Below are positions 36,775-61,552 of a DNA stretch of 64,000 nt, one piece after another. The first letter of the stretch is position 1, and every line of letters starts with the position of its first letter. A model generated the notes under the pieces. That model was given only the letters and a program-made list of their open reading frames with translations, had not been told where the DNA came from and searched no databases. This DNA is from Mobula hypostoma (taxonomy: Eukaryota), in contig NC_086097.1 in the NCBI RefSeq assembly GCF_963921235.1, forward strand, positions 111,230,001 to 111,294,000, read 5' to 3'. Both the position numbers and the translations under genes were made by a program.

Positions 36775-38123
36775 GTTAGTACTTCAATTCTATCAATGAT
36801 TCTGGTCAGACTTCTCAAGTACATCTTATATTTAACTGAATAAGACATTTATGGTACACTGGCTATAATTTGTCTCCAAAGTTGGTCTACGAATGAACAG
36901 TAATTCTGACAAAAGATTGAGGCTGAGGAGATGGTGGTGGCGTCATTGTCCAAACACTGAAGTAGGGATCTTCAGTCTATGCTGGTGGACAAAACTATTT
37001 CTTTTAGCAAAAAGCAAGGAATGAAAGCGGATGAAAAACTATTTGTTGGGTTGTCAATATCTGCAGTGTAATAACTTATGGCTGTGTTAAATTGCTGTCC
37101 TGCTTAAATGCTATCAAAAAGCCAGAATGAGAGCAGATGAGGAGCTATTTTCAGTAAAGTTTCAGCAGTGATAGTTGCTGTCTAGGTTATGGATTAGAAT
37201 GTCATCTAGTCATAAGGACTAGAAAGAAGCCCTTTGGTCCACCGTGTCTGTGCCCAACCTAAGTAAATTCCATTCCCTATATTTTTCCTGTATCCCTTTA
37301 AATCTTTCCTATCCCAATATCTATCCAAGTGCTTTTTAAACTTTGTAATTTTACCCCCCTCTACTACTACCTCACCCACCATCCAGTATCGTTGGGAGTA
37401 AAGGTCTTTCTTTAAACCTGTTCTCTGTAGTATCCTATGAACAGGACAGTGACCATTCTTATTATTTACACCCCTCGTAAAGCTCTTTAAGGTCACACCT
37501 TGATCTTCTTTGCTCCAGTCTTTCCAGTCTCCCCTTACAATCTCAGTCCCTGAAGTATTAGCAACATTCAAGTGAATCATTTTTACATCCTCTCACTTAA
37601 TCATGTTATTCCTATAGTATGGCAACTGGAACTGCACGTAGTTTTCCAGATGGAGTTTCATCAATGTTCTTTGCATGTTTAGTCAACCAAATGAGTAACA
37701 ATCCAATGATTTTGTGATTACATTACAATTGTTTTTGGTTTTATTTTAATTGTAAATTTGTAAATAAGATCTAAAATCAAGCACATACTAGCTCATTCTG
37801 AACATAAATGTGATTATATTTTTAGCTGCTACGTGAAATTATGGAAGGGCATAAATACTGCCCTTGAGAGCAATATCTTCTTCCTATAAATTATTTTTCA
37901 AGAAACATTGCATGAATTAGCTCTCACCCATTGTCTCCTGAATGGGAAATAACTTCATTTTAAAATTGTCATCTGTGTAATGAGCTCCGTACTTGGACTT
38001 TTACCTTTTCTTCGTCTGTAATCTTATCTGGATCTAGAATCATTTGTGTACCTTGAATTTTGGAGTGCTACATGTCTCCACATACAATATGGGAACAGTG
38101 AATCTAAATTCTGAAATTCTATA

Positions 38124-39717
38124 CAGGTTTTCCCCGCCATCCAAAGGTAGAGCGTTTCTATGAAACGGTTCGTAAGCCGAAATGTCGTAAAGCGAAGAAG
38201 CAATTACCATTTATTTATATGGGAAAATTTTGTGAGCGTTCGCAGACCCAAAAATAACCTACCAAATCATGCCAAATAACACATAAAACCTAAAATAACA
38301 GTAACATATAGTAAAAGCAGGAATGATATGATAAATACACAGCCTATATAAAGTAGAAATACTTCTCCACAATCATCGCCGGCACTGTTCTCCGAAGCAA
38401 AAATCTCACGCAAGCGCTCTTGGCAAAAACATGGCGCAAGCGCTCTCCAGTAACCATTAAGCTATGAAGCTGCCAAATCATACCAAATCATACGTAAAAA
38501 TACACAGCCTATATAAAGTAGAAATAATGTATGTGCAGTGTAGTATCACTTACTGGAATTGGGAAGACAGGGCCGAGCACACTGATGATGGAGTGTTAGA
38601 CTGAGTTGTCGCAGGTTAGGGTGGTGCAATGGCCCCCACTCTCCAGGCTGCCGACTGATATATTGCCACGAAGCATGCAGCGGTAGCTGGAAGGCACACA
38701 GCACATCTTTAAGAAAAAAGCCGAAATAAACATGCTAATTAATTAGGTGCCGCCCAACACGTAATTGTCGGCCCAGATCATTGCCGATTGCATCGCCTCT
38801 GATCTGGGCCTACATTTACGTGTCGGGCAGCACCTAATTAATTAGCTTGTTTATTTAGGCTTTTTTCTTAAAGATGTGCTGGGTGCATCCTGGCTACCGC
38901 TGCATTCTCTGCGAATCGGTATCTGTCCAGGGCCTGGGTGTTGGGGTGGTGGGACACTGGGGTGTCATCTCATCATCGTCTGTTTCCATTAGAGCAGGCG
39001 ACTCATCTTCTCCTATGACTGCCCGCCTCGATGTCGAAGGTCGAGGTTCGTCATCTGCTGTGGCTGATGTGGAAGGCTTGCTTGACTGCTGAGCCTCGCG
39101 CATTTTTCTATCATACAGTTCTTTGTAAGCACTCAAACCATCATGCAAATATCCCCTAAACCTACGTACCCTTTCAAAATTAAAGTCGTATTTTATCATT
39201 GCAGCGAAAATCTCACACGGTTGCTTCACATTCATTTCGCTACTGAATTTGGTTTCGATTGTTATCCTTTCCTCTTCCAATTGCATCAGCTCTTCATCTA
39301 TCAGTTCTTGGTCATGGGATGCCAAAACCTCTTCAATATCGTCTTCGTCAGCTTCCACAAATCAAACTCACGTTGTCCTTACTTCGTTCACCATGATCGA
39401 AACACTTAATTATGTCTAGTTTTACGCTAAGTGTAACACCCTTACGAGCTCTTTCAGGCTTTTCCAATACCTCAGAACTCATCTCGCAAACGGCTGCTCA
39501 CAGGCACGTATTAAAGCAAAGCCGTTCCGAATCCAGGGAAGAGTGGCTGCTCGGGGTGCGCGCTGCCTTTTATTGCGCGGCGCTGGTTTTTTATCACACG
39601 CTAATTTTTTTCGTAACAGTGAAAACACCTTCTGAAAGCGAAAACAGGGTACTAATGTAGGTCTTTCGTAACAGTGAGGTTTCGTAAAGCGAACGTTCGA
39701 AAAGCGGGGGACACCTG
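38124..39717 (-). mobile_element. Tigger/pogo-family non-autonomous DNA transposon, copy 1
   Basis: TA|CAGGTTTTCCCCGC ... GCGGGGGACACCTG|TA; acidic pogo C-terminal remnant (EADEDDIEEVLASHDQELIDEELMQLEEER, ORF 38894..39358) and N-terminal HTH remnant (KRARKGVTLSVKLDIIK.FDHGERSKD). Confidence 0.88.
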
Positions 39718-41629: not shown

Positions 41630-42607
41630 AGAGCAACACATACGAAATGTTGGAGGAACCAGCAGGTCAGGCAGCATCTATGGAAAAAAGCTTGGTCGAC
41701 ATCTCAGGCCAAAAGCCTTTGGCAGGACTGGAAGAAAAAAGCTAAGGAGTAGATTTGAAAGTGGGGGAAGAGAGAGAGAAACACCAGGCGATAGTTGAAA
41801 TTTGGAGAGGGCGGGATGCAGCAAAGAGCTGGGAAGTTGATTGGTGAAAGAGAAAGAAGGCCATGGAAGAAAGAAAAAAGCTGCGGGGGGGGGAGGAGGA
41901 GCACCAGAGGGAGGCGATGGGTGGGCAAGGAGATAACATGAGGGAGGGCAAAGGGGATGGGAAATGGTGAGGGGTAGGGGGCAGAGGCATTACGGGAAGT
42001 CTGAGAAATCGATATTCATGCTATCATGTTGGAGGTTACCCAAACGGAATATAAGGTGTTGTTCCTCCAAACTAAGTGTGACCTTATCACGATAGTGGAG
42101 GAGGCCGTGGGTGGACATATCGGAATGGGATTGAGAAGTGGAACTGTCGTGATAAGGCCACGCTTAGGTTGGAGGAACAACACCTTATATTCCATTTGGG
42201 TAGCCTCCAGCTTGATGGCATGAAATTGATTTCTCAAACTTCTAGTAATGCCTCCCACCCCTCCCTTCACTATTTCCCTCTCTCATGTTATCTCCTTTCC
42301 CACCGAAAAAGAGGAGCCTCCCTCTGGTGCTCCTCCCTCCCCCCCCATCCCCCTTTTTCTTTATTCTGTGGCCTTCTGTCTCTTTCACCAATAAACTTCC
42401 CAGCTCTTTGCTTCATCCCTCCCCCTCCAAGCTTCACCTATCGCCTAGTGTTTTCTCCCTTCCCTTCCACCTTTCAAAGTCCTGCTGAAGAATTTTGGCC
42501 CAAAACATCAACTGTGCTTTTTTCCATAGATGCTGCTTGGCCTGCTGAGTTCCTCCAGCATTTTGTGTGTGTTGCTCGGATTTCAGCATCTGCAGATTTT
42601 CTCGTTT
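41630..42607. mobile_element. Penelope-like 3' termini in inverted arrangement (minus copy about 41630-42140, plus copy about 42144-42607)
   Basis: Both arms carry RLEEQHLIFHLGSLQ.DGM..DFS, the GIY-YIG ORF C-terminus, followed by the pyrimidine-rich UTR and the hammerhead-like/GATGCTGC tail. Confidence 0.8.
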
Positions 42608-44714: not shown

Positions 44715-44774
44715 CACTCTTACTTTGATGTACCTGTGCCTCACAGAAGCACCTCAAGGAGAAAGGATCTTGTG
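44715..44774 (+). CDS. LRRFIP2: LRRFIP2 short coding exon (HSYFDVPVPHRSTSRRKDLV)
   Basis: TTTTGTTCTTTTCAAAG acceptor, GTG|GTTTGT donor, 60 nt; HSY...RS...KDL matches recalled HSYSHSHGMKKRSSDSHKDLL. Confidence 0.75.
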
Positions 44775-45039
44775 GTTTGTAAAGTAAAAATCTTCGTTGC
44801 TTGTTGAGTATTTTCATCCAGTCTTTTATATTCTGCAAGGAAAAGATATTAGGTGCATGGAAATTAAGAATTTCTAAGTAAATGCCCTTTACTAATTAAC
44901 AAGTGTTCTTGGAGTGAAATATTCTGCGTCCTTTACAAAATGATTGCACGCATACTTGGAATGCTCTTTTGCTTGTAACAGTGTGCATTATTACTACATT
45001 TTCTGTTTATAGATTTCTAGCATCTGCAATTTTGAAGAG

Positions 45040-47090
45040 TAGAAAGGGTAAGCCAGGGAACTACAGACCAGTCAGCCTAACATCAGTGGTGGGAAGTTAC
45101 TGGAGAGAATTCTGTGGGACAGGATCCACCAGTGTTTGAATGGCCAATGTCTGATTGGAGGAGTTAGTAATGCTTTATGTCTGGAAAGTTGTGTTTGATG
45201 AAACATTTAGAGTGTTTTGAACAGGTAAATAAAAGAGTAGATGATGTTAGGATAGTGGATGTTGGCAAGGCATTGAACAAGGTCCTATATCATAAGCTTG
45301 CCATTAAGGTTAGGTCTCATGGTATCCAGGGAGATTTGATTAGGTGGATTCATAATTGGCTCAGAGGTAAGAAGCTGAGAATGGTGGTTAAAGGTTGTTC
45401 TCAAAATGGAAACGTGACCAGTAGTGTTGGGGCCCTTGTTATTTGGTATTTATACAAAGTGATTTGGATGTGAATGCAAAAGGCTTGATCAGTAAGTTTG
45501 TGGATGTCACAAAAATTGTAGGTGTTTTTACAAAGAAAGTTATCATAGAATATTAGGCAATTTGGGAAGTGAGCTGAGGAGTGGCTCATGGATTTCAACA
45601 CAGATAAGTGTGAGGTGATGCATATTAGAAATTCAAACCAGTGTAAGACTGTGAATGGTAGGGTATTAGGGTGTGTAATATTACAGAGGAACCTAGGAAT
45701 ATTAGTGCACAGTTCATTGAAAGCAGTGTCATTGGGAGACAGGGTGGTGAAAAATGCTAGCCTTGATCCTTTAGTGCTTTAGAGCTGCAGGAGATGAGTG
45801 GGATTTTTAAACAATATTTCTCCTCTGTATTTACTGCATTTACTGAAGAGAAAATCATGGTTGACCTGTTACTTAATAAAGGCAGCAAAAGTAAACCAGC
45901 ATGCTGAACCAGACATCAGTGTTCAGTAATTTACTGGAGGAGATTCTAGAGGGACAGGATCTATCAGAATTTCTATAGACAAGGTCTGATGAGAGATAGT
46001 CAGCAAGGCTTTGTGAATGGGAAATACTGCCTGACAAATGTCCAAGTTTTTTGTACAGGCAGCCAAGTGCATAGATGAGGTCAGGGTTTTGGATGTTCGG
46101 CCAAGACACATGGTGCTCTCTAGGGATTGGTGTTTGTCATCATCTGTATCAGTGATTTGAATGAGAATGTTGAAGGTATGGTTAGTAAGTATTTACCTAC
46201 TAATAAATGGTACTTTAATATCAACTGCATACTTACTAACCATGTGAAGAAAGCTATCAAAAATTATTAGTAATGGGACAAGGACTAGTAATGGCTGCTA
46301 ATTCAGACAAACACTGGACATTGCATTTTGGGAACTCGTGGTAGCGTAGCAGTTAGCACGACGCTGTTACAGTTTGGGGTGTTGGAGTTCACAGTTCCCG
46401 GTGTCCTCTGTAAGGAGTCTACATCCTCTCCATGGAATACATGGGTTTTCTCCAGGTCCTCCAGTTTTCTCCCACAGTCCAAAGACGTACCGGGTAGGTT
46501 AATTGTAAATTGTCCTGTGGTTAGTTTAGAGTTAAATCCTGGTTGTCAGGGGTCGATGGGGTGGTGCTGCTCAAAGAGCAGGAAGGGCCTACTCCACACT
46601 GTATTGCAAGATAAATAAATTTTTCGCTAAATAAAAAAAATCAAACATGGGTAGGATTTATCCTATAAATGAGTGGGCCCTGGGGAGTATGTGGAATAGA
46701 GGGACTTTGGAGCACAAATATATAGTTTGCTGAAAGTGACGCCATAGGTAGATGTGGTGGTGAAGGAGGAATTTGGCATGCCAGCCCTCATCACTCAGAC
46801 CACTGAGCAGGCATCACATTGAAGGGACATCATGTTGCGGTTGTCTAAGATTATGGTGAGGCTGCATTTGGAGTATTGTGTACAGTTTTAGTCACCTTCC
46901 TGAAGGAAAAATGTCAATCACGTGGAAAGAGTGCAAAGAAGATACACGAGAATGTTGCTGGAAATCAACCCTGAGTTGTAGGGAGGGCTCAGTCAGGCAG
47001 TGACTTCATTCCTGAAACTTTGGAGATTGATGAATAATCTTAAAGTGCTGTATAAAAGCATGAAAGGTATAAACAGGGTGAATTGTAAAA
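45040..47090 (+). mobile_element. Cluster of decayed CR1 RT fragments
   Basis: KPGNYRPVSLTSVVGKLLERIL near 45050; KVRSHGIQGDL..WIHNWL (ORF 45177..45473); DFNTDKCEVMH; RLHLEYCVQF near 46860. Confidence 0.75.
46330..46620 (+). mobile_element. V-SINE (tRNA-derived head plus V-domain)
   Basis: GGTAGCGTAGCAGTTAGC head; TGGGTTTTCTCCAGGTCCTCCAGTTTTCTCCCACAGTCCAAAGACGTAC V-domain; AT-rich tail. Confidence 0.7.
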
Positions 47091-47405
47091 TTAAAGATTA
47101 GCTTTATTTGTCACATGTACATTGAATCATACAGTGAAATAGGTTGTTTGAGTCAACGACAAACACAGTCTGAGGAAGTGCTGGAGACAGGCCACAAGTG
47201 TTACCATGCTTCCAGCATCAGCATAGCATGCCCACAACTTAATAACCCTAACCTGTATATCTTTAGGATGTGAGAAAAACTGGAGCACCTGGAGAAAGCC
47301 CATGCAGTCACGGGAAGAGTGTACAAATTCTTACAGACAGCAGTGGGAATTGAACCCTAATTGCTGGCACTGTAAAGTATTCGCTGACCGTTACACTACC
47401 ATGTC
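47090..47405 (-). mobile_element. V-SINE
   Basis: Minus strand has GGTAGTGTAACGGTCAGC A-box, GGTTCAATTCCC B-box and a V-domain. Confidence 0.7.
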
Positions 47406-48189
47406 GTTGTAGCGTGTACTGTCTTTTTCTCAGGAAAAGCAAGTCTAAAACGAGAAGGAAAGGAATTAAAAGGCACCAGAGGGGAACCAATTTACCTGGA
47501 GAGGGGTGTTTATTTGCAATAATCTGCTAGCAGATGTAGTTGAGGTAGGTATAGTGGAAAGTTGTTGTGCTGAAGGGCCAGTTTCCATGCTATATGACTA
47601 ACAAGCTTTAAAAGGCATTTGAATAAGTACGTCGTTAGGAAAGCCTTGAGAGATATAGACCAAATATGGGCATATGGGACTAGCTCCGGTAGGCACCTTG
47701 GCTGGCATAGCTGAGACTAGGGGTTTGTTTCCATTCCTTGTTACTCTAAGTAAATGTCCATGCTAACCAATCCCATTTAATAGCACCTTGGCTATTGCTT
47801 TCTCATATTTTGATGATTAAAATGCTCATCCCTATACAGTTTAATTCAGGTCAGGCAGTGAAATCTGAAGTGTCACCACCTTATTGGTGAAAGTTTTTTT
47901 CCTCTGACTCTTTTATGCCTCACCTTAAACCTAACCCATCTACTTTGCACTTTGGAATAAAATTTTTCCCTGTCTGCCTACCCAAGCCCCTCATAATTTT
48001 GTATACTTCCATCAGGTTACCCTCAGCAGCCTCTACTCCAAGGTAAATGAAGTGGTTAAGGGCAGGTACTCCCATATTTAAAAAGTGTCTGCACAAGCAT
48101 TCCTGGAAAATAGGTGGTGGCATGGACATGATGGGTTGAAGGGCCTGTTTTCATGGTGTATGACCTTGACTATAAACCTAGAAGGATGC

Positions 48190-49001
48190 TGAAAAGGATC
48201 TGGTGCTTTCCCGGCGTATTTTCCCTGTGACTTGATACGTTGAATAGCGCTCTTCTTGGGCTTCCAGCTGGATACATGTATTGATTTTAACTGACGTTTC
48301 GATGACGTACCCTGTCATCTTCATCAGGGATGATGCCTGGACATGTCTAGCCTACTGGTATTTATACCCCCGTTGTCTGTCCCTACTGGTTGTTAGTCCT
48401 CATCCAATCAGAATTCCACTGGCCCACCTTTTTTATAATTGAATTCCAGTTCTTACTTAGAGCCGAGACTTTTGTCTTTGTTAAGATTCTTTTGTTCTAG
48501 TTTTATTTTAATGGCTTTCTTCACCAGGCGGTCCCAAAACCCATTGGCGTGTCACAGTAGTTTAGTGCTGTCAAAATCAATCCTATGGGCATTGCGAATG
48601 CAATGTTCTGCTACCACCAATTTCTCTGGGTAATCCAAACAGATACACCTCCTGTACTCCATGATGCAATTTTCCACAGTGCATCCTGTCTGGTCGATAT
48701 ATGCTGTTCTGCATTCACAGGGAATCTTGTAAATGCCAACTGTCTTGCGTCCCAGGTCATCTTTGACCTGCGTAAACTGTGATGCGTTTGCCATTGCTAC
48801 CGTCTGTCTTCCCTATATTTCCACAGTTTCTGGAAGGATCTCCAGGATTCTGAAGAAATACCGGATTAATACCATCCATAAACCCATAAGAAAGCTCAAA
48901 TCGCAGTTTATGCGGGTTAAAATCGATATATGTACCCAGTTGAACGCCCAAGAAGAGATTATTCTAAAAGGGTGCAATCCAACATATCAAGTCACAGGGA
49001 A
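48190..49001 (-). mobile_element. Penelope-like element, second family: GIY-YIG 3' end on the minus strand plus an inverted fragment (about 48790-49001, +)
   Basis: ORF 48552..48794 (GIYKIPCECRTAYIDQTG...VAEHCIRNAHRIDFDSTKLL); the + strand piece CLPYISTVSGRISRILKKYRINTIHKP is the segment normally upstream of the nuclease. Confidence 0.88.
48288..48331 (-). ncRNA. Minimal type-I hammerhead ribozyme motif (Penelope-associated), complete catalytic core
   Basis: Minus strand reads CC-CUGAUGA-A-GAUGAC-AGGGUAC-GUCAUC-GAAA-C-GUC^AG: conserved CUGANGA and GAAA boxes, perfect 6-bp helix II, GUC triplet, palindromic ACGU in place of helix III. Helix I is weak. Confidence 0.7.
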
Positions 49002-49181
49002 GGTGTACAAACACCACAAAGAACAGCATCTAGGGTCATGAAAGAGGAGAGAATCTGTCAATATTCCCTTGGGTGTTATTTACCAGAGAAACCTCTTTGC
49101 ATTTAATGGCTAGTGAGGTTTTATGATAAAATGGTTTAACTTCTTGTGATATCAATCACCTCCAGTAACAATGATTCCAGA

Positions 49182-49845
49182 CATAGTCATAGTCATACTT
49201 TATTGATCCCGGGGGAAATTGGTTTTCATTACAGTTGCACCATAAATAATAAATAGTAATAAAACCATAAATAGTTAAATAGTAATATGTAAATTATGCC
49301 AGGAAATAAGTCCAGGACCAGCCTGTTGGCTAAGAGTGTCTGACCCTCCAAGGGAGGAGTTGTAAAGTTTGATGGCCACAGACAGGAATGACTTCCTATG
49401 ACGCTCTGTGTTGCATCTCGGTGGAATGAGTCTCTGGCTGAATGTATTCCTGTGCCCACCCAGTACATTATGTAGTGGATGGGAGACATTGTCCAAGATG
49501 GCATGCAACTTGGACAGCATCCTCTTTTCAGACACCACCATCAGAGAGTCCAGTTCTATCCCCACAACATCACTGGCCTTACGAATGAGTTTATTGATTC
49601 TGTTGGTGTCTGCCACCCTCAGCCTGCTGCCCCAGCACACAACAGCAAACATGATAGCACTGGCCACCACAGACTCGTAGAACATCCTCAGCATCGTCCA
49701 GCAGATGTTAAAGGACCTCAGTCTCCTCAGGAAATAGGGACGGCTCTGACCCTTCTTGTAGATAGCCTCAGTGTTCTTTGACCAGTCCAGTTTATTGTCA
49801 ATTCGTATCCCCAGGTATTTGTAATCCTCCATCATGTCCACATGC
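49182..49845 (-). mobile_element. Young Rex1/Babar LINE 3' fragment
   Basis: ORF 49275..49967 (YKYLGIRIDNKLDWSKNTEAIYKKGQSR.YFLRRLRSF...VCWG...SFLSVAIKLYN); (ACTATG)n tail. Confidence 0.9.
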
Positions 49846-50038
49846 TCATTTATTGAGGGACAGCTATCATGAAATGCCACCCTATTTTTCTCAACAATGT
49901 TTTCAACTGCTGGCCTGCCACACATCTTAGGAATGAATTGTGTGCACTCACCTTTTGCTTTTTTCATGCTTTATCTGTCTGCTTTGTGTTGGATATTTAT
50001 TATTCTTGCACCTTATTTTCCTTTCTGTGGATTTGTAG

Positions 50039-50092
50039 TCATTGCCTCAGGAAAAGAACAAGTCAGCTCAACTCAAGAAAACCTCTCGATCT
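50039..50092 (+). CDS. LRRFIP2: Candidate LRRFIP2 cassette exon (SLPQEKNKSAQLKKTSRS), no counterpart recalled in the human isoform
   Basis: Pyrimidine-rich acceptor ending TTTGTAG (50038), TCT|GTATGT donor, 54 nt, open in phase 0-0, unique non-repeat sequence. Support is from splice signals only. Confidence 0.55.
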
Positions 50093-60859: not shown

Positions 60860-61552
60860 GCCCATGTCAGTCCATGGCCTCCTATTGTGACAAAATGAAG
60901 CCACCCTCAGGGTGGAGGAGCAACACCTTAGCCTCCAACCTGATGGCATGAATATCGATTTCTCCTTCTGGTAAAATAGATTTTCCCTACACCTCCCCTC
61001 TTCTTCTATTCCCTACTCTGGCCTCTTACCTCTTCTCACCTGCCTATCTGGTTCCCTCCTCCTTCCCTTTCTCCTATGGTCTATTCTCCTCTCCTATCAG
61101 ATTCCTTCCTCTCCAGCCCTTTACCTTTCCCACTGCCTCACTTCACCCTCTAGCTATCCTTTTTCCCTTTCCAGCACTCACAACACGCTGGAGGAACTCA
61201 GCAGGTCGGGCAGCATCCGTGGAAACAATCAGTCAACACTCAGTCCTGACGAAAGGTTCCGGCCCAAAATGTTGACTGATCGTTTCCACGGATGCTGCCC
61301 GACCTGCTGAGTTCCTCCAGCGTGTTGTGAGTGTTGCTTTGACCCCAGCATCTGCAGAGTATTTTGTGTTTACTTTTTCCCTTTCCTCCCACCTTATTGT
61401 CTTCACCTTTCCTTTCCAGTCCTGATGAAGGGTCTCGGCCTGAAATGTCAGCTGTTGATTCGTTTCCATAGATACTGCCTGACCTGCTGTGTTCCTTCAG
61501 CATTTTGTGTGTGTTGCTTTTGTTTTCTAGCATCTGCTGAATTTCTTGTGTT
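60860..61552 (+). mobile_element. Penelope-like 3' terminus containing a nested second terminus (61172-61372) with an inverted tail
   Basis: RVEEQHL.SLQPDGMNIDFS end of the GIY-YIG ORF; pyrimidine-rich UTR; two hammerhead-like motifs; 13-bp duplication CTTTTTCCCTTTC at 61159-61171 and 61373-61385. Confidence 0.8.
61417..61454 (+). ncRNA. Minimal hammerhead ribozyme-like motif (major Penelope family), partly decayed
   Basis: CAGUC-CUGAUGA-A-GGGUCUCGGCCU-GAAA-U-GUC-AGCUG. Core boxes are intact; helix I 3' strand and the ACGU palindrome are mutated relative to the consensus from other copies. Confidence 0.55.

Follow-up and report, generated by a model that had tools for sequence, protein, structure and literature searches.

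Our analysis indicates that the minus strand of the window, by which we mean the whole 64,000-nucleotide stretch of Mobula hypostoma DNA analysed here, very probably encodes a minimal type-I hammerhead ribozyme located in the pseudo-LTR (pLTR) of a decayed and rearranged Penelope/Poseidon-type element (Table 1). The letters reported in the first-pass annotation, comprising CUGAUGA, one extra A, a 6-bp hairpin with a 7-nt loop, GAAA and C-GUC, were all recovered when the minus strand was reread letter for letter: GAAA (48300-48297) is followed by C-GUC (48296-48293) and then AG, and cleavage is predicted between positions 48293 and 48292, based on established knowledge and the hammerhead numbering in PMC4209133. 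Several features of the minimal hammerheads (min-HHRs) of metazoan Penelope-like elements (PLEs), as described by Cervera and de la Pena in 2014 (PMC4209133), are present at the locus, namely intact CUGANGA, GAAA and UH in type-I order, an unpaired A (A48320) between positions 9 and 10.1, a G10.1-C11.1 pair formed by G48319 and C48301, and a palindromic ACGU at positions 15.2-16.2. Within the 64-kb window, a perfect CUGANGA combined with GAAACGUH occurs at this single site. Scanning with a full descriptor (core, stem of at least 6, GAAA, palindrome and UH), as the annotation had suggested, likewise retrieved the motif once, and 4 of 300 dinucleotide shuffles contain such a match. The window shows no enrichment of the bare pattern CUGANGA-N10-40-GAAA (11 matches at a shuffle mean of 7.66, with at least 11 in 13 of 100 shuffles), and an Rfam scan of the window returned no match at E values up to 1.

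Table 1. Positions of the hammerhead, the surrounding element and the host intron in the window.
Feature	Positions	Strand	Remarks
Whole insertion	48196..48964		head-to-head pair of 5'-truncated pieces, both from one Penelope/Poseidon-type family, 3' ends outwards; ends approximate
Broken GIY-YIG endonuclease remnant	48386..48788	-	CxC and two His (CCHH); in-frame stop, later frameshift
Inverted RT-EN linker piece (LPYISTVSGRISRILKKY...MRV)	48796..48917	+	matches P0002 21-65, E 3.6e-6
Second 3' end of the element, tail-less	48915..48964	+	starts 0-3 nt from predicted cut; joined to linker via GGT microhomology
Locus-specific 22-nt piece in left tail	48221..48242	-	inverted copy of right flank 48980-49001 (21/22 identical); single-copy depth at 48238
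Hammerhead core C3-A9, CUGAUGA	48321..48327	-	read from sequence
Unpaired A (48320) and helix II GAUGAC/GUCAUC with 7-nt loop	48301..48320	-
Helix II arms	GAUGAC 48319-48314, GUCAUC 48306-48301	-
G12-A15.1, ACGU palindrome (dimer helix III) and GUC cleavage triplet	48293..48300	-
Helix I arms, CC (48329-48328) against AG (48292-48291)	48291..48329	-	GG in other copies; 2 bp only
Presumed ORF N-terminus through the ribozyme (MKMTGYVIETSV...AQEE...RRES)	48178..48324	-	in-frame ATG at 48324 and 48318; by analogy with PAc (PMC11167929)
Conserved 3' RNA element	48205..48271	-	GCCCRAGAAGA (48261-48251) and helix closed by CGCCGGGAAAGC (48216-48205)
TATA-like box TATAAATA	48359..48366	-	39 nt before core; kept in the family's loose-end consensus
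LRRFIP2 intron holding the insertion	44784..50038	+	exons matched at 44715-44783 and 50039-50092

The hammerhead is located about 60 nt behind the last coding piece of the element and is followed by the 3' region, which ends near 48196. Its reported position downstream of a GIY-YIG remnant is real, as the translated minus strand from 48788 to 48474 shares 49% identity with the protein P0001 (E 1.7e-31) and also 49% with P0002. The remnant reads GIYKIPCEC...YID...EH...H and thus displays two cysteines between GIY and YIG and a CCHH arrangement at the 3' end of the ORF, and the CCHH motif has been described as a feature of PLE endonucleases (PMC8557442). Atlas matches of the remnant (0.94-0.95) are to eukaryotic clusters in which 13-18% of the members carry GIY-YIG; Pfam gave no match on the remnant or the linker, and on P0002 GIY-YIG was matched merely at E 0.12. 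P0001 and P0002, both metagenome proteins with 51-55% identity, are the only two longer protein matches to the ray endonuclease, and this taxon sampling is too thin for any statement on horizontal transfer. The linker piece on the plus strand represents the segment that normally precedes the endonuclease. Opposite-strand joints of 48783 to 48899 occur in contigs of other copies in three runs, which is consistent with the two pieces being contiguous in intact members. The approximately 40 linker residues before GIY are devoid of the CX2-5CxxC finger, and more of the upstream linker is missing from this copy. As Neptune and Nematis carry such a finger in the RT-EN linker (PMC8557442) and the part of the linker that is present does not, the element more likely belongs to Penelope/Poseidon than to Neptune or Nematis. 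No RT domain is present in the element at this locus, so that its clade was judged from the endonuclease, a portion of the linker and the RNA.

The arrangement at this locus, in which a 5'-truncated copy is inverted and a single end bears a tail, is known from PLE insertions (PMC8557442). The duplicate at 48915 indeed starts GGTTAAAATC, as the annotation had claimed. At the left end, the 22-nt piece sits between the tail-less end of the element and its tail and is common to organism B; it could record a switch of the reverse transcriptase from RNA to target DNA between two initiation sites, or a later templated repair. The insertion is represented in organism B by a single contig at 48238 and in organism C by record 16 of run X13 (48863-49085, 10 differences). 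LRRFIP2 proteins of Mobula birostris match plus-strand exons at 85-100% identity, and since the exons flanking the insertion (44715-44783 and 50039-50092) are both on the plus strand, the motif is intronic and antisense to LRRFIP2, as had been proposed. Two further features were noted. About 300 nt away from the insertion, the minus strand carries a separate C-terminal fragment of a LINE-like reverse transcriptase (49275-49970, 231 aa, matching Pfam PF09004 at E 4e-10), and LRRFIP2 introns contain a 1.6-kb inverted duplicate (38121-39691 and 44201-42639, 85% identity).

The annotation had placed the hammerhead at the 3' end of the element. This holds with respect to the GIY-YIG remnant, behind which it is located, but the motif resides in the pseudo-LTR, where it overlaps in-frame ATGs at which the ORF presumably starts. 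A similar organization has been described for the Anolis carolinensis Poseidon element PAc (Frangieh et al. 2024, PMC11167929), in which the ORF begins at stem II and reverse transcription initiates in a stem-loop just downstream. The reading frame that passes through the ribozyme is open, and its peptide MKMTGYVIETSV...AQEE...RRES is homologous to MGKESVPETM...AREDF...RRES in distant loci. When full-length proteins with this peptide at their start were sought, 13 candidates were obtained, 10 of them with a length of 96-197 aa; the four that were inspected resemble read-through ORFs and none is an RT. By analogy, the region 48205..48271 is presumed to be the RT-initiation region and 'tail'. 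Its RNA element, GCCCGA(G)AAGA and a helix followed by GAAAGC, seems to be common to the ray, to insect-type loci (e.g. L037:1483-1550) and to the lizard element, while the letters of the helix differ: the window copy has UCCAGC/GCCGGG (5 of 6 pairs) and L037 has CGCGGC/GCCGCG. This element is a candidate for a conserved RT-recognition structure. A CCAAT-like box (48404-48408, minus strand) is, as the TATA-like box, located ahead of the ribozyme, and use of these boxes would place the transcription start a few bases upstream of the core. Since none of the 21 distant loci has a TATA-like box at the corresponding position, we do not claim a conserved promoter; Penelope of D. virilis has a TATA-less internal promoter (PMC2377424).

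The family represented by 48196-48964 is rare in the window and abundant genome-wide. When contigs from three DNA runs (X3, X9 and X13, from three organisms) were aligned at 80% likeness, 8,032, 7,801 and 7,349 contigs were related to the family, numbers that reflect depth and not copy number; a further run, which we guess to be RNA, contained 698. Loose-end consensuses of 94, 70 and 60 contigs (X3, X9 and X13) show the intact core preceded by CCC, and a consensus of 59 contigs has GG after GUC at an agreement of 0.69. Thus, other copies possess G1.1, and the window copy has lost it, as CpG decay predicts. The annotation had proposed such a decay of GG, and the 59-contig consensus supports this part of the proposal; the duplicate at 48915, however, does not provide independent evidence, as its GG overlaps the GGT microhomology with the joined ORF piece. 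Four of the 40 variant rows listed, out of 199, fall within the ribozyme. Of these, the loop II positions 48307, 48308 and 48311 differ in 84-97% of the depth, and the variant at 48315 converts pair 5 of helix II from A-U to G.U in other copies. With regard to the question whether the core and helix II are preferentially kept, the core is intact in the consensuses, and the rows listed show differences in loop II and at one position of helix II.

Support from outside the rays came from scanning metagenome contigs with a pattern restricted to the 3' region, in which the ribozyme was left free. At least 117 loci were retrieved, and a scan of viral contigs added three, all GC-rich and with the core absent; from these 120, 20 duplicates and one further short locus were removed. 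Among the matches listed, a core with at most two mismatches is located upstream in 8 of 20 distinct low-GC loci and in 2 of 79 high-GC loci, compared to a mean of 0.24 and a maximum of 2 in shuffles. The spacing between core and pattern is 30-32 nt in seven of the eight low-GC loci and 32 nt in the window. The low-GC loci presumably represent insect host DNA. In many of them, two Penelope 3' ends form a short head-to-head pair reminiscent of MITEs, with junctions in or near the hammerhead (L023, L036, L052, L062, L064, L083, L088, L090 and L118). A covariance model built from nine hand-picked loci, with the window copy excluded, gave its best score in the window, 21.9 bits at a rough E of 5e-4, to 48282-48334. 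The distant loci in the alignments were picked by hand (13, 9 and 9 rows); they are decayed, related to one another and few in number. In an alignment of 10 rows chosen in this way, 86.7% of helix II is paired, two of the six pairs show two-sided change, and pair 3 is variously G-C, A-U and U-A; the number of two-sided cells over eight pairs was reached by 0 of 500 shuffles, a count that is not to be read as a probability because the aligned rows are related. In a looser alignment of 14 rows, the two-sided changes were reached by 46 and 51 of 500 shuffles and hence showed no clear excess. Covariation of helix II, for which the annotation had suggested a test, thus shows as compensating pairs in the smaller set, but it does not clearly exceed shuffles in the larger one. 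A coding role (Glu-Thr) may also contribute to the conservation of GAAACG.

It might be argued that the motif merely resembles a hammerhead by chance, as a product of coding sequence and a small hairpin. The lack of enrichment of the bare core pattern, the empty Rfam scan and a fold z-score of only -1.3 for the 63-nt segment would be in line with this. However, the full descriptor is rare in shuffles, the position behind a Penelope endonuclease is fixed, identical core and spacing recur at loci that were retrieved without the core in the pattern, and helix II pairs are compensatory in distant loci. Taken together, the distant loci, the family contigs, the covariance model and the pairing of helix II largely refute a chance origin, which we regard as scarcely credible. 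A different question is whether the motif is kept for a role other than cleavage, as an ORF start and protein-bound RNA, in which case the hammerhead would be vestigial or would only modulate translation. In-frame ATGs occur in and beside the core, which is sequestered in the predictions, and helix I extends over 2 bp. In addition, PAc does not cleave without its protein, its ribozyme mutants left insertion in vitro unaffected, and no RNA-seq reads were found to begin or end at the cut (PMC11167929). On the other hand, C3-U4-G5-A6 precede the ATG in insect-type loci and are yet invariant in the hand-picked alignment of 10 rows, and in PAc the substitutions C3G and G8C abolish cleavage while the double mutant is partly rescued (PMC11167929). 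We consider such a role possible, albeit unlikely to be the reason for conservation, and it is compatible with the motif being a hammerhead.

That this particular copy is active and matters to its host, e.g. by cutting an antisense transcript of LRRFIP2, is highly improbable in our view. All core letters are intact although 4,554 of the 8,032 matched X3 contigs are less than 90% alike, and the insertion is common to organisms A, B and C; however, some intact cores are to be expected among thousands of copies, the motif is antisense to the LRRFIP2 pre-mRNA, and this copy combines a broken helix I with a perfected inhibitory pairing. As the duplicate is devoid of a core, no partner hammerhead exists in cis. 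With helix I broken and a cis partner lacking, the window copy is most likely passive and inert.

Structure predictions for the minimal hammerhead are in keeping with an RNA that does not readily adopt its active fold. Helix II is predicted with a probability of 0.98-1.0, while the core is predicted to pair with the cleavage-site strand at 0.94-0.96 in this copy and at 0.76-0.84 with G1.1 restored. Helix I has one of two pairs in this copy and 2 bp with G1.1, at a predicted probability below 0.01. A longer-range helix I, ACAUGU/ACAUGU, appeared in one fold but was rejected, as it was not evident among relatives. A dimer fold comprising both helices II and the ACGU duplex reached -17.3 kcal/mol compared to -32.0 kcal/mol for the best dimer, with no tertiary energy counted. 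These predictions fit the low, dimer-dependent activity of min-HHRs (PMC4209133) and the protein-assisted cleavage of PAc (PMC11167929). Based on these studies, we infer that pLTR RNA alone would be unable to fold the ribozyme, having no helix III, a 2-bp helix I and a trapped core. Two copies might then pair via ACGU, probably with the help of the element protein, which would be bound to the neighbouring 3' stem-loop. Active members would be cut after GUC only when paired and chaperoned. Through such a cut, tandem transcripts would be shortened to unit length and would lose the start codon. For the window hammerhead itself, the misfolding is a prediction of the folding model; dimer formation, protein assistance, cleavage and role would follow by analogy with the related systems.

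The ray family is one more family of the class described in 2014. Like the min-HHRs reported there (PMC4209133), the ribozyme is of type I without helix III, has a palindromic 15.2-16.2, an unpaired base between 9 and 10.1, a G10.1-C11.1 pair and a long helix II, occurs mostly as solitary copies and is situated in the pLTR of an element with a GIY-YIG domain. Helix I comprises 2 bp here, as in D. virilis, compared to 4-5 bp in Schistosoma, and the window copy has lost one of these pairs; in addition, the host is a cartilaginous fish, a group that goes unnamed in the excerpted text of PMC4209133. With PAc, the element shares a presumed ORF start overlapping stem II, a C-terminal GIY-YIG, two 3' ends with and without tail, and a downstream RNA in which the motif GCCCGA(G)AAGA is accompanied by a helix with GAAAGC behind it. 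In the PAc initiation RNA (supplement 1 of PMC11167929), a GCCCGAAAGA motif can be made out by eye, as can a helix CAUGGCC/GGCCAUG with AAAGC behind it, in the same layout as in L037 and the window. The helix sequences differ, and the reading frame of the GAAAGC motif is, again as judged by eye, shifted in PAc. The two also differ in that PAc is biochemically active, whereas the window copy consists of broken coding pieces without an RT. An exact match to the 26-nt distance between ATG and cut in PAc holds under one way of counting only, and the ATG of the insect-type loci is one codon earlier; what we claim is a common frame, not an exact distance. Non-LTR retrozymes (Li, Clavereau and Pollet 2026, preprint 10.64898/2026.07.22.740005) also carry a type I hammerhead derived from a PLE pLTR and have been reported in one chondrichthyan, but these are non-coding tandem repeats, whereas the locus holds a single hammerhead and coding remnants and is devoid of a tandem unit; self-BLAST at the locus showed only the short inverted duplicate, itself without a core. 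The hammerhead-like repeat that dominates the window (61417, 21526 and 42477) has CUGAUGA, the extra A and a GAAACGUC-like layout as well. However, its helix II is short, its helix I has 5 bp (CAGUC/GACUG), its tail is unrelated and no endonuclease match occurs nearby, so that the two families are distinct, as the annotation had stated. Six copies of the dominant repeat were matched, at 61417, 61241 and 42477 on the plus strand and at 41730, 21526 and 15182 on the minus strand, and all are decayed. Among the papers retrieved by literature searches, titles and abstract beginnings contained nothing on this ray Penelope family or on junctions at the cut site.

The junction at 48915 might be a genomic fossil of hammerhead cleavage in vivo, although we regard this as rather doubtful. 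In such a scenario, reverse transcription would have started at the internal initiation site and run off a ribozyme-made 5' end, followed by re-priming on ORF RNA through the GGT microhomology; this would leave a second 3' end that starts close to the predicted cut, as the one in the window does (0-3 nt after it). The microhomology alone can account for the joint in the window. Among 30 tail copies examined, 11 were classed as being without the 3' half-core. As judged by eye, the joint in the window is one of these; of the others, the tail of L062 and L088, one shared event, starts about at the cut, that of L074 at +2 to +4, one family at -5, and L025 and L042 near +15; two cores are decayed, and several further junctions fall in helix II. 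As a trace of cleavage, the positions of these junctions are suggestive at most.

While the hammerhead at this locus says nothing about LRRFIP2, the layout of a hammerhead and a 3' stem-loop is common to distant insect-type elements and, apparently, to lizard PAc. If junctions were enriched at position 1.1 across copies, Penelope hammerheads would demonstrably cut template RNA, which the PAc study saw neither in vitro nor in RNA-seq (PMC11167929). A ray family with thousands of copies permits a computational test of whether cleavage by Penelope hammerheads acts on the RNA that serves in retrotransposition: a pile-up of junctions at the cut would constitute in-vivo evidence, and otherwise the result would support the notion that the ribozyme is dispensable for insertion.
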